IMG/VR virus record: IMGVR_UViG_2534681835_000019
DNA from: a virus
Lineage: Duplodnaviria; Heunggongvirae; Uroviricota; Caudoviricetes
DNA: 14,986 nucleotides
Strand: one strand, 5' to 3'
The position numbers and the translations under genes are program-made. The notes below the pieces were generated by a model. The model ran no database searches, had not been told where the DNA came from, and worked only from the letters and a program-made list of their open reading frames with translations. Shown one piece after another: positions 4,377 through 7,306 of the stretch. How positions within the stretch are numbered: the first letter of the stretch is position 1; each line of letters begins with the position of its first letter.

Positions 4377-4691
4377 TTAGCATTTTTTTGACCGCGCGTT
4401 TCCGGACGTATTCTGTTCTCCTGTCCCTTTATATCGTCGGAATACCCGCCGCTCTTCAAATCCCATTCCCAACTCAGAATGTAGTCGGTTGACCGCTTGT
4501 TTTATTTCGGTCAGGTTCACCGGTGAAACCGGAGTCCGGCGCGCCTTACGCAAACACTCTGCTCGTTTCTGTGCCGCCACTTTTCTTTTCTGGTCATCAC
4601 TTAGCTGTACCATCACTTTTGCCCATCGTTCAGCTGCTCTCCGGTACAGTCCTTTTTTCTCCAGACATTCTGCCAGGTGATCATGTAGCAT
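4377..4691 (-). CDS. PerC-family (Pch-like) transcriptional activator, putative
   Basis: 104 aa, ATG start with strong SD (GGAGG, 7-nt spacer). The motif LEKKGLYRRAAERWAKVM matches my recollection of the PerC/Pch family signature (..KGLWRRAA.RW..). Family assignment is from memory, not a search. Confidence 0.5.
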   Translation of the reverse strand: MLHDHLAECLEKKGLYRRAAERWAKVMVQLSDDQKRKVAAQKRAECLRKARRTPVSPVNLTEIKQAVNRLHSELGMGFEERRVFRRYKGTGEQNTSGNARSKKC

Positions 4692-5153
4692 AAGTAACCT
4701 CCGTTTATCTACAGACTGCCATCCTGAATTAACCGTCCTTAATAAGACAACAATAAAAAACTAATTATATAAAAACAATAAAAATAATATACAAAAAACT
4801 AAACAACAAAGAAAAGCAAATCATATCTGGCATTTTAATTGAAAGAGCAATTACCGAACAAAAGACGCTGACTATATACTCAAAACCAAACAACAATTCT
4901 GCCAATCAGGTATCATGGCAACACACGGAATTACCATGTTTTTGCCTTCTCTGCCCATACAATACGGGCATATACTTCATACTCTATTGTAATATTTCTA
5001 TCCATGCGCCCCACTCCATTTACCTGTAAATAATATTCAAAATATTTATCACAGAAATCGTTTTTGGCCATGAACTGAGCACACTATAAAGTCCGGAACT
5101 GACTCTTTGTTAAATTACCTTAACGTTACCAGTAACACCTTCGTAACAAAACA

Positions 5154-5621
5154 TCACGGTATACACTGGGTACGGATATATTCCTGTGCTCCTTCCAGTT
5201 GCTTCTGCATTGCCATCAGCCGTTCTCTGAGGATGAAATAATCCCGTTCAGCGGCTTCTGCCAGTCGGGGACCGGTTGCATTATCCACGCCGGAGGTGAT
5301 GGGGGCTTTACGCAAGGAGCCTGGACAGTTGGCGTTGATCCGCAGGCGCTTACGACCAGCGGCAACATCAGCGCGCAGAGTTTCATTTTCAGCTCTCGCA
5401 TCGGCTAATTCCCTCGAGTATCTGGCATCAAGTGCAGCAACATCACGCTGGCGCTGCTGCATATCAGTAATGGTTGCATTTGCCAGCTCCAGCTCACTGA
5501 CTTTTTTATCGCGCTGCTCTTTGTAGGTTATGGCGTTATCACGGTAATGATTCAGCCCCAGACTAAGCGCACCACAGGCCACCAGCAGGGCAATGATGAC
5601 CACGCACAGTACGCGGTTCAT
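5154..5621 (-). CDS. Rz: Spanin inner-membrane subunit (Rz, i-spanin)
   Basis: From ATG 5621: MNRVLCVVIIALLVACGALSLGLNHYRDNAITYKEQRDKK...DVAALDARYSRELADARAENETLRADVAAGRKRL...AERDYFILRERLMAMQKQLEGAQEYI, closely matching recalled lambda Rz. The ORF-track start at 5645 is a TTG extension. Confidence 0.9.
   Translation of the reverse strand: MNRVLCVVIIALLVACGALSLGLNHYRDNAITYKEQRDKKVSELELANATITDMQQRQRDVAALDARYSRELADARAENETLRADVAAGRKRLRINANCPGSLRKAPITSGVDNATGPRLAEAAERDYFILRERLMAMQKQLEGAQEYIRTQCIP
5216..5401 (-). CDS. Rz1: Spanin outer-membrane lipoprotein subunit (Rz1, o-spanin), embedded in Rz in another frame
   Basis: 61 aa, ATG start; MRELKMKLCALMLPLVVSACGSTPT..CVKPPSPPAWIMQPVPDWQKPLNGIIS has a lipobox (VSAC) and proline-rich segment and matches recalled lambda Rz1. 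Confidence 0.85.
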   Translation of the reverse strand: MRELKMKLCALMLPLVVSACGSTPTVQAPCVKPPSPPAWIMQPVPDWQKPLNGIISSSENG

Positions 5622-5622
5622 T

Positions 5623-5724
5623 TCACCACCAGCGTATCTGACCAATGAAATAACCGGAAGCCATAATCACAAACACCAGCCAGATAAGGATGAACTTCCA
5701 GGTGGATAATTTTTCAGCCATCAT
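5623..5724 (-). CDS. Hypothetical 33-aa single-TM peptide between endolysin and Rz
   Basis: Tandem ATG ATG at 5724..5719 preceded by GGGAG (7-nt spacer); MMAEKLSTWKFILIWLVFVIMASGYFIGQIRWW has one hydrophobic helix. Its stop lies 1 nt from the Rz ATG. No homolog recalled. Confidence 0.35.
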   Translation of the reverse strand: MMAEKLSTWKFILIWLVFVIMASGYFIGQIRWW

Positions 5725-5796
5725 TCGAATCTCCCGAATCAGTTTGCTAAAATCAAACACACTTTCTCCTTTGACTTTTCCGGAGTCAGGAAACAC

Positions 5797-5829
5797 AAAA
5801 CCCCACTTGCGGCCAACAAACGGGGTTTT
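5797..5829. terminator. Terminator-like hairpin downstream of the endolysin gene
   Basis: AAAACCCCACTTG-cggccaa-CAAACGGGGTTTT: 13-bp stem with 7-nt loop, followed by a U-rich run on either strand (GUGUUUCC on minus, ACUUUUAUUC on plus). Confidence 0.5.
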
Positions 5830-5918
5830 ACTTTTATTCACTTAGTTTTTGCCAGTTCGCAGGATTTCGTGTTATCCGCCCGTGTGAGCAAACCGCATTT
5901 TTCAGCAAAATATTCTGC

Positions 5919-6452
5919 TTATCTGTCAATTCCCCAGCACGCCAGCGCGCTCTCCTGGTCACGCCGTGAGACCTGACCGTAACAGTTATTTGAGCGAATA
6001 CGGCAGTCTCTGCCACCGTCCTTAATCCACCAGCGAATCGCCTCGCATGCTCCCCTGCGGTCACCAGCATTAATCCGTCTGTAAAACGTCGACGGGAAAC
6101 ACTTACCGGGGCCAATGTTGTACGGACAGAATGACGCAATCCCCGCTTTCTGGGGTTCGGTCAGTGGCACTCTGATGTTTTTCTCCACCCATGCCAGCGC
6201 CTTATCACGTTCAATGGCGTTAACCTGGTCGCATTTTTCCTTCGACAGCTTCATGCCAGGAATCACAGGCTTACCATCCACCATGATGGCACCTCGGCAG
6301 ATGGTCCAGATACCCGCACCATCACGGTATGCCGTGGTGTGGTTACCTTCCTTTTCATCCAGAAACTGGTCGAGAATGTCAGGCGCAGGCGCACCAGCGG
6401 CAATCAGCGCCAGAACGGCAGCCGACAGGCCGTATTTGATTTTGGTGTTCAT
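5919..6452 (-). CDS. R: SAR endolysin (phage-21 R-type lysozyme, GH24/T4-lysozyme-like)
   Basis: 177 aa, ATG start. N-terminal Gly/Ala-rich weakly hydrophobic segment (GLSAAVLALIAAGAPAP) typical of a signal-anchor-release domain, followed by the E-x8-D-x5-T catalytic triad (EGNHTTAYRDGAGIWT). Resembles recalled phage-21 R. Confidence 0.9.
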   Translation of the reverse strand: MNTKIKYGLSAAVLALIAAGAPAPDILDQFLDEKEGNHTTAYRDGAGIWTICRGAIMVDGKPVIPGMKLSKEKCDQVNAIERDKALAWVEKNIRVPLTEPQKAGIASFCPYNIGPGKCFPSTFYRRINAGDRRGACEAIRWWIKDGGRDCRIRSNNCYGQVSRRDQESALACWGIDR

Positions 6453-6494
6453 GGATATTTATCAGGATTTATCGGCAACAGATAACGAGCCAGC

Positions 6495-6917
6495 TTATAT
6501 ACGTCCTTTAAGATAAGTCAGTCCTGGATGAAACCAGTAAGCCGGCACTTTTTTAAAGGGCGGGTTGTCAAACTCACGAAGAAGAGCCTCCCGCACAACT
6601 GCATCCTTGTCCGCACCACTGGCCAGCGCTTCAATCTCAGCAGCTATCTGCAGATATCCCATGCAACGACCAATGCACTTCATCAGCCCCTGCTTTTTAT
6701 TGTTCTTCAGGTAATCAATGGCAAATTCAATGAGCACCTCACTATGCTGGTGCGATGGCGGTGTTACTTTTCCATTTTCTGAGATGGTTATTTTCCCAGC
6801 ATCACCGGATACAACAAAGGATGGCCGGTTACACTCCCATTCCAGCTCACTGAAATTATCATTATGAATACTGAAACACTCTGAGAGATTTCTGCTCATC
6901 GCGGCGTTTTTTTTCAT
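6495..6917 (-). CDS. Hypothetical protein inserted between holin and endolysin
   Basis: 140-aa ATG-initiated ORF with no strong SD and lower GC than its neighbours. Its start sits in an A8 tract and overlaps the 3' end of the upstream small ORF (6862..7011). No confident homolog recalled; E. coli Qin ydfR also sits between holin and lysozyme, but similarity is unverified. Confidence 0.5.
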   Translation of the reverse strand: MKKNAAMSRNLSECFSIHNDNFSELEWECNRPSFVVSGDAGKITISENGKVTPPSHQHSEVLIEFAIDYLKNNKKQGLMKCIGRCMGYLQIAAEIEALASGADKDAVVREALLREFDNPPFKKVPAYWFHPGLTYLKGRI

Positions 6918-7011
6918 CTTCAGAAGGCATCAGCGTCGACAGTTTTTTATTCAGTTCAGCAATTTCATTTTCCAGACGACTGAAGCGCTGATTCATTTCT
7001 TCATGGTTCAT
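6862..7011 (-). CDS. Hypothetical 49-aa coiled-coil-like ORF directly after the holin stop; possibly the 5' part of a frameshift-split gene
   Basis: ATG 7011 with GGGGAGA 7 nt upstream; MNHEEMNQRFSRLENEIAELNKKLSTLMPSEDEKKRRDEQKSLRVFQYS. Runs through the A8 tract (6907..6914) and stops 17 codons later. Deleting one A would fuse it in frame with 6495..6917. Confidence 0.35.
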   Translation of the reverse strand: MNHEEMNQRFSRLENEIAELNKKLSTLMPSEDEKKRRDEQKSLRVFQYS

Positions 7012-7014
7012 CAC

Positions 7015-7230
7015 CTAATCTCCCCGGGCAGCCTTGCGACGGTCCTCTTTAATTTTGAAATACAGGTTAGTCAGATACGTCAGCAGGCCAAACAGCAGAC
7101 TCCCCAGCACACCTATCGCCACCCACTGGGACGGAGAGACTTTGTCCAGCAGCTGCAGTAACCAGTATCCCGTCCCCACCGCTGACGTGGTGTATGACAC
7201 ACCTGTTGTGATTTTTTCCATCTGGTACAT
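7015..7230 (-). CDS. S: Class II pinholin (phage-21 S21-type) with dual-start motif
   Basis: 71 aa; [71 protein letters not shown] resembles recalled S21. ATG at codons 1 and 4 is the classic antiholin/holin dual start; two TMDs; SD GGGAGA upstream. Confidence 0.9.
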
Positions 7231-7265
7231 ACCCCGTCTCCCGTTATCCGGAAGCTCACAACATG

Positions 7266-7295
7266 AAAAAGGCCAGCAGCTGTTTACTGATGGCC
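7266..7295 (-). terminator. Rho-independent terminator in the holin 5' leader (minus-strand polarity)
   Basis: Minus strand reads GGCCATCAG-taaacag-CTGCTGGCC followed by UUUUUCAUG: 9-bp stem with one mismatch plus a U-tract. Confidence 0.6.
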
Positions 7296-7306
7296 CTGAC
7301 TCCCCG

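Follow-up and report, generated by a model that had tools for sequence, protein, structure and literature searches.

The two overlapping open reading frames (ORFs) found between the holin and endolysin genes of this Escherichia coli prophage are very probably the two halves of a single accessory gene, broken when 41 bp were deleted between direct repeats of 9 bp; the run of eight adenines (A8) at their overlap is an in-frame bystander. This gene sat between holin and endolysin in a lambdoid E. coli prophage resembling Stx phages, and it lost 41 nt between two copies of GATGAGCAG, one of which was left behind. The footprint of this event is visible in the alignments, and from it we infer slipped mispairing during replication, or recombination, between the repeats. 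The allele is likely to have arisen once on a particular haplotype and is now fixed mainly in prophages of O111:H8/H-/NM EHEC strains, on two backbones, with further decay through IS insertion under way in some strains. What remains at the locus is an ordinary pseudogene of an accessory gene with a YdfR-related C-terminal domain.

Results

Two overlapping reading frames in a phage 21-type lysis cassette

The window, by which we mean the whole 14,986-nt stretch of DNA that was analysed, carries all the genes of interest at the holin-endolysin locus on its minus strand. The features are as follows.

7799..7620, minus strand: DUF1378 gene
7015..7230, minus strand: P21-type (class II) holin, 71 aa (Pfam PF04971, E = 8.5e-33)
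6495..7011, minus strand: full extent of the pseudogene, 517 nt; accessory gene between holin and endolysin whose frame is broken by the loss of 41 nt
6862..7014, minus strand: 5′ fragment ORF, 49 aa from ATG 7011 or 50 aa from GTG 7014
6907..6914, minus strand (T8 on the plus strand): A8 tract, natively read within GAA-AAA-AAA (E-K-K)
6892..6900, minus strand: the one GATGAGCAG direct repeat (9 bp) that survives, marking the deletion junction (alignments A1 and A2)
6495..6917, minus strand: 3′ fragment ORF, 140 aa from ATG 6917 or 134 aa from ATG 6899
5919..6452, minus strand: lysozyme-type endolysin (Pfam PF00959, E = 5.2e-24)
5154..5645, minus strand: Rz-type spanin gene, which completes the lysis cassette (Pfam PF03245, E = 1.5e-46)

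The order of P21 holin, lysozyme endolysin and Rz spanin (PF04971, PF00959 and PF03245) is that of a phage 21-type lysis cassette, and the region resembles that of Stx-converting and other lambdoid E. coli phages. The holin has two start methionines (M1 and M4), terminates in GAT TAG, and corresponds to the “class II holin family protein” WP_000284516.1 of RefSeq relatives. Between it and the DUF1378 gene lies a small ORF that is called DUF826 in relatives, and the translated endolysin begins with a hydrophobic, SAR-like segment. A scan for promoters and terminators detected none from the holin to the endolysin.

The initial annotation had drawn attention to an A8 at the overlap of two ORFs in this interval, and the tract is indeed found there, at 6914..6907. 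The T8 that was listed beside it at 6907..6914 is equally real, but the two are one tract seen on opposite strands and not a pair. The description of the ORFs themselves also stands. The upstream frame has GTG (7014) and ATG (7011) directly after the holin stop, with GGAG positioned 8 nt 5′ of the ATG as the good Shine-Dalgarno sequence that had been attributed to it. It crosses the tract as GAT GAA AAA AAA CGC CGC GAT GAG CAG and stops at TAA 6864..6862. The downstream frame opens at ATG 6917..6915, with the A8 next, and ends at 6495; as had been remarked for its first start, ATG 6917 has nothing like a Shine-Dalgarno sequence upstream, and the same holds for the following ATG in this frame, at 6899. 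Because this frame is +1 relative to the upstream one, (7014-6917) mod 3 being 1, dropping one A fuses the two into 172 aa reading ...SEDEKKNAAMSRNLSE..., which agrees with the fusion of about 170 aa that had been predicted for an A7 tract.

Homopolymers of eight or more bases occur twice in the window (6907-6914 and 9960-9967), where its base composition would predict about 0.3, and the A8 tract is mildly unusual and otherwise unremarkable. It resembles a junction because the out-of-frame ATG of the longest downstream ORF happens to sit directly before it.

A 41-nt deletion between direct repeats separates the window from intact alleles

The proposal that the two ORFs were a frameshift-split gene, recently inactivated by an indel, proved right in that single-ORF orthologues exist, from which the window differs by a 41-nt deletion. 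In relative phages one ORF fills the holin-endolysin slot. Its product has 329 aa in Stx2_95 and 213 aa in Stx2_12E129, and phage 86 has a version of 268 aa under the name “YdfR family protein”. The 213-aa protein starts with MNHEEMNQRFSRLENEIAELNKKLS like the window's upstream ORF and has the C-terminal domain of its 140-aa ORF, and the 329-aa protein contains ...QQPEKKRRDEQFAAFYDYCRKVMSRNLAECFSIHNDNF.... The native frame thus crosses the A8 as E-K-K and continues with the RRDEQ of the window's upstream ORF, 11 further residues, and then the MSRNL of the downstream ORF. At the DNA level, Stx2_95 has the same A8 in frame, together with 41 nt that are missing from the window (alignment A1). In E. 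coli 10671, an uninterrupted 185-aa coding sequence (WP_001015164.1; locus L004, 1510-2067) lies between flanks identical to those of the window and matches it base for base around the site, with the A8 present and in frame, apart from 41 extra nt (alignment A2). The comparison with orthologous loci that had been suggested as a check therefore returned the expected single ORF, but with A8 in place of the expected A7, and the lesion is not in the homopolymer, where it had been placed.

The intact allele reads CGCCGC-GATGAGCAG-TTTGCTGCGTTTGACGATTATTGTCGGAAAGT-GATGAGCAG-AAATCTC and the window CGCCGC-GATGAGCAG-AAATCTC, so that the missing stretch consists of a 32-nt spacer and one 9-nt copy of GATGAGCAG. 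The deletion begins 6 nt 3′ of the A8, and the native frame is lost 3′ of the retained repeat copy. Since 41 is not a multiple of 3 (41 mod 3 = 2), translation from the native start goes off-frame after residue 40 and stops 9 codons on. Residues 1-40 of the 49-aa product, which is WP_001369338.1 in RefSeq, are accordingly native, and its final nine (KSLRVFQYS) are out-of-frame read-through past the deletion junction. On the other side, native coding extends from 6891 to the stop, and the first six codons of the 140-aa ORF (MKKNAA) are the native EKKRR codons in the wrong frame.

The direction of the change can be read from the protein family. The lost residues FAAFDDYCRKV belong to a segment, RRDEQFAAF(Y/D)DxCxKV, that is present in 25/25 aligned family members (alignment A3) and is kept down to 57% identity to the reference protein P0020 and in every architecture, with A42, C48 and K50 near-invariant. 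Conservation of this segment across the whole family indicates that the 41 nt are ancestral, and we rejected on the same ground the converse possibility that they were inserted in the “intact” alleles. An intact parent protein with the window's own substitution (SEVLIEF; P0019) occurs on 10 contigs.

Spontaneous deletion between short direct repeats, by slipped mispairing or microhomology, is a classical class of mutation in E. coli lacI, and events of the Farabaugh or Albertini-Miller type are reportedly deletions between short repeats in that gene. The window's gene fits this class, as two perfect 9-bp repeats flank the lost segment in the intact allele, and one copy plus the spacer (41 nt) is gone with the other copy kept. 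There is nothing unusual about the present case, which is an instance in a prophage accessory gene.

The pseudogene is already known in substance, as RefSeq flags the locus as “frameshifted” in E. coli O111:H- 11128. There, the PGAP/RefSeq 517-nt coding sequence ECO111_RS13535 (“hypothetical protein, frameshifted”; locus L005, 7010-7526) is base for base the same as 6495..7011 of the window, and WP_001015164.1 is its intact counterpart. That annotation flags the frameshift without giving the place or the origin of the lesion.

The intact protein shares its C-terminal domain with YdfR-family proteins

Searches of Pfam and NCBIfam gave no match for the intact 185-aa protein, and the two window ORFs are likewise without a Pfam match. 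Its longer relatives, however, match PF07041 (DUF1327) in their N-terminal part at an E value of about 1e-45 and are named as the YdfR family. The C-terminal domain is 81-89% identical to YdfR-family proteins of 287-296 aa, and a profile of unknown function, phrog_1085, matched at its positions 117-296 (E = 7e-112), covers the 185-aa and the longer forms alike. A further profile, phrog_15975, matches residues 1-40, the part kept in the 49-aa ORF. The intact 185-aa protein is an N-terminal helical region joined to a C-terminal domain that is shared with longer DUF1327/“YdfR family” proteins. DUF1327 (PF07041)/YdfR proteins such as gp05 of Stx2-converting phage 86 occupy the same slot directly after the holin and have the C-terminal domain of about 115 aa and a coiled segment in common with the window's gene, whereas the 185-aa form is without their N-terminal DUF1327 domain.

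All homologues found were from E. coli. A sequence profile search of the PDB returned nothing below E = 0.1, and the AlphaFold2 model, built from an E. coli-only alignment of 25 sequences, was too poor for a fold search (pLDDT 57, pTM 0.29). A literature search on DUF1327, and on ydfR together with holin, found no functional study.

Tract length among carriers of the deletion allele

To survey the allele, a 241-nt query across the site was compared with 5,426 complete E. coli genomes, of which 162 matched at full length, in two forms. The first is one 241-nt piece, as in the window, and the second, exemplified by E. coli 10671, is two pieces spread over 282 nt at 100% identity, that is, with the additional 41 nt. 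Roughly 90 genomes have the intact 185-aa type. Tract length was then scored with a 45-nt query able to seed only on the deletion junction. This junction is carried by 72 of the 5,426 complete genomes, 71 of which are identical and have A8. The remaining carrier, a PacBio assembly of strain 2013C-3277 (NZ_CP027331.1), has A9, and a second assembly of that strain has A8.

An exact-sequence look-up in about 15 billion proteins gave the following counts.

49-aa product: 927 contigs
140-aa call: 70 contigs
134-aa call: 49 contigs
Intact 185-aa protein: 944 contigs

Absent from the same collection were the fusions predicted for A7 (172 aa) and for A10 (173 aa). Among the family members of similar length that were inspected there was no such fusion either; these were different broken or partial alleles.

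Alternative explanations for the two-ORF arrangement

The tract could itself have been the lesion if an A7 with a fused 172-aa ORF were the native state and a gain of one A had inactivated the gene. Removal of one A would indeed join the two frames, and homopolymer lengths do differ between strains elsewhere in the prophage (4793-4798 and 7928-7934). The intact orthologues nevertheless carry A8 in frame, and the A7 fusion would be without 14 native residues, including family-conserved positions, and would have NAA instead. Moreover, none of the 72 carrier genomes has A7 and the fusion is missing from the protein collection, so that the A7 state that had been expected to be common among orthologues was never seen; we attach almost no weight to this explanation. 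A sequencing or assembly error at the homopolymer, or a phase-variable contingency tract, is just as improbable. Both had been put forward in the initial annotation, and the single A9 is what speaks for them, but it is contradicted by the second 2013C-3277 assembly and would in any case leave the frame unrestored. The split is due to the 41-nt deletion and not to tract length, and the identical allele in 71 independent complete genomes from many laboratories, as well as on 927 contigs, is difficult to square with an error.

Recoding at the A8, by programmed ribosomal frameshifting or transcriptional slippage, might instead join the ORFs into a functional fusion. In the frame of the 49-aa ORF the sequence GA-A AAA AAA forms a perfect X_XXY_YYZ heptamer, and RNA polymerase slippage on A/T runs is able to rescue frameshifted genes (PMC1088944, PMC4256274). 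A -1 shift, however, yields KKTPR and then a stop (five codons), and the downstream ORF lies in the +1 frame, which would have to be reached by a +1 or a -2 shift. There is no stable RNA structure at the site: the fold of 86 nt around and 3′ of the tract scores z = -0.47 against shuffled sequences, and an Rfam scan gave no RNA family there. For slippage by the RNA polymerase of E. coli, a run of 7 T or longer, or “even more” A residues, is required (PMC6260861), and in many bacteria A/T runs typically show signs of counter-selection at 9 nt (PMC1088944). By these published lengths an A8 in the sense strand is at or below the threshold and marginal at best, and a slippage-rescued product would again be without the 14 native residues, conserved positions among them. 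The A_AAA_AAA heptamer and overlapping ORFs thus bear a superficial likeness to the -1 frameshift at A_AAA_AAG in dnaX and to transcriptional slippage in IS elements and Shigella mxiE, but the window has the wrong frame for -1, no stimulator, and a run below the usual 9. The tract lies inside an uninterrupted ORF in the orthologues, where recoding has no role; the two-ORF arrangement is not conserved, being limited to one deletion allele that is IS-disrupted in some strains. We consider recoding highly unlikely, and the programmed frameshift proposed earlier fails on its -1 stop, on the lack of RNA structure and on the absence of fusion proteins.

It is similarly hard to credit that the broken gene has become a new two-gene arrangement in which a holin-coupled 49-aa helical peptide, a lone C-terminal domain of 134-140 aa, or both are under selection. 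The 49-aa ORF has a good Shine-Dalgarno sequence, adjoins the holin stop and retains the helix modelled with the highest confidence (pLDDT 85-91 over residues 1-20), and the allele is widespread on 927 contigs. Clonal expansion of O111 and the near identity of the modules, however, explain this spread. The 3′ ORF has no Shine-Dalgarno sequence and is interrupted by IS1203 in some carriers, and the full-length family members found are all single ORFs, the shorter stand-alone entries being partial or broken calls. We would allow a slim chance that the A8 leaks, with RNA polymerase dropping one A or ribosomes shifting by +1 or -2 to give the 172-aa ...SEDEKKNAAMSRNLSE... protein, or that the 49-aa peptide has gained a role in lysis timing. 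If leaky rescue were true, the 172-aa protein would partly rescue the gene and the pseudogene would be a “leaky” one.

The explanation that we favor remains the loss of a single gene by deletion between repeats. Judging from the good Shine-Dalgarno sequence and the abutting holin stop, the N-terminal peptide of 49 aa probably continues to be produced; the 3′ fragment is probably not translated to a useful level. The case also carries a caution: where overlapping ORFs seem to meet at a homopolymer, the lesion may lie elsewhere.

Spread and further decay of the deletion allele

A prophage of E. coli O111:H- 11128 matches the window at 99.9% identity over 14 kb. Carriers of the allele are mostly O111:H8/H-/NM strains. 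Being found in 72 of the 5,426 complete genomes, for the most part O111, the junction left by the 41-bp deletion marks a lineage cleanly. The same allele is present in the Stx2a prophage of E. coli SJ3 (locus L007), which has a different morphogenesis module and different terminase and portal genes. When the two were compared over window 5176-9305, zero differences were found across 5989-7933. An almost identical lysis module with the deletion allele is thus common to a stx-negative lambda-like prophage and a Stx2a prophage. Identity of the two backbones over 5989-7933 favors one origin of the deletion and its spread by module exchange between lambdoid prophages, and these comparisons point to exchange of lysis modules between co-resident lambdoid prophages after a single deletion event. 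A marker shared by stx-negative and Stx2a prophages documents such exchange.

Decay has gone further in strains 2013C-3250 and 2015C-3108, where an IS1203 element (IS3 family) is inserted in the 3′ fragment (loci L008 and L009, 7636-8849; at about 6840 of the window). PGAP calls the 49-aa ORF as coding sequence WP_001369338.1 in both of these strains. The insertion fits with relaxed constraint on the gene.

One protein, P0003, found on 1 contig, is the 49-aa product of the deletion allele with T26A, a residue that also occurs in some intact alleles (P0022). It could stem from a second, independent deletion between the repeats or simply from a point mutation. Many other alleles in E. coli are independently broken or truncated (P0072, P0104, P0128, P0121 and P0132), a further sign of relaxed constraint, and the gene appears to have been lost recurrently in this species. 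Two further profiles, phrog_36381 and phrog_26186 (122 and 62 positions), together tile the 185-aa protein, and this tiling suggests that another common split allele may exist.

Other features of the window

Three indels distinguish the window from the O111:H- 11128 prophage, all of them in homopolymers. At 4793-4798 the window has A6 and 11128 has A8, about 100 nt upstream of a PerC-family regulator gene (4691..4377, minus strand); at 7928-7934, just 3′ of the esterase stop, T7 in the window stands against T8 in 11128. Tract lengths elsewhere in this prophage are therefore variable or mis-assembled, unlike the A8 at 6907-6914.

An IS66-family element with three genes (tnpA, tnpB and a transposase) lies at 10871-13287 on the plus strand, between a tRNA cluster and the esterase gene. 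It is ISEc47-like in RefSeq relatives, is adjoined by TerB-family and DUF3927 genes, and occupies the region where Stx phages have stx, as seen by comparison with the SJ3 prophage (locus L007). The tRNA cluster (13493-13744, minus strand) is typical of the late regions of Stx phages and comprises Arg-tct, Arg-tcg and a tRNA with a CAT anticodon that is Met according to ARAGORN and tRNA-Ile according to RefSeq. An Rfam match to the sRNA STnc100 is found at 10011-10183 on the minus strand (104.7 bits, against a gathering score of 47), and the second 8-base homopolymer of the window, at 9960-9967 (A8 on the plus and T8 on the minus strand), follows about 45 nt further downstream on that strand. 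At its far end (14569-14986) the window terminates within an IS3-family element, IS1203/IS629-like, that is 99.8% identical to the IS1203 copy at locus L008.
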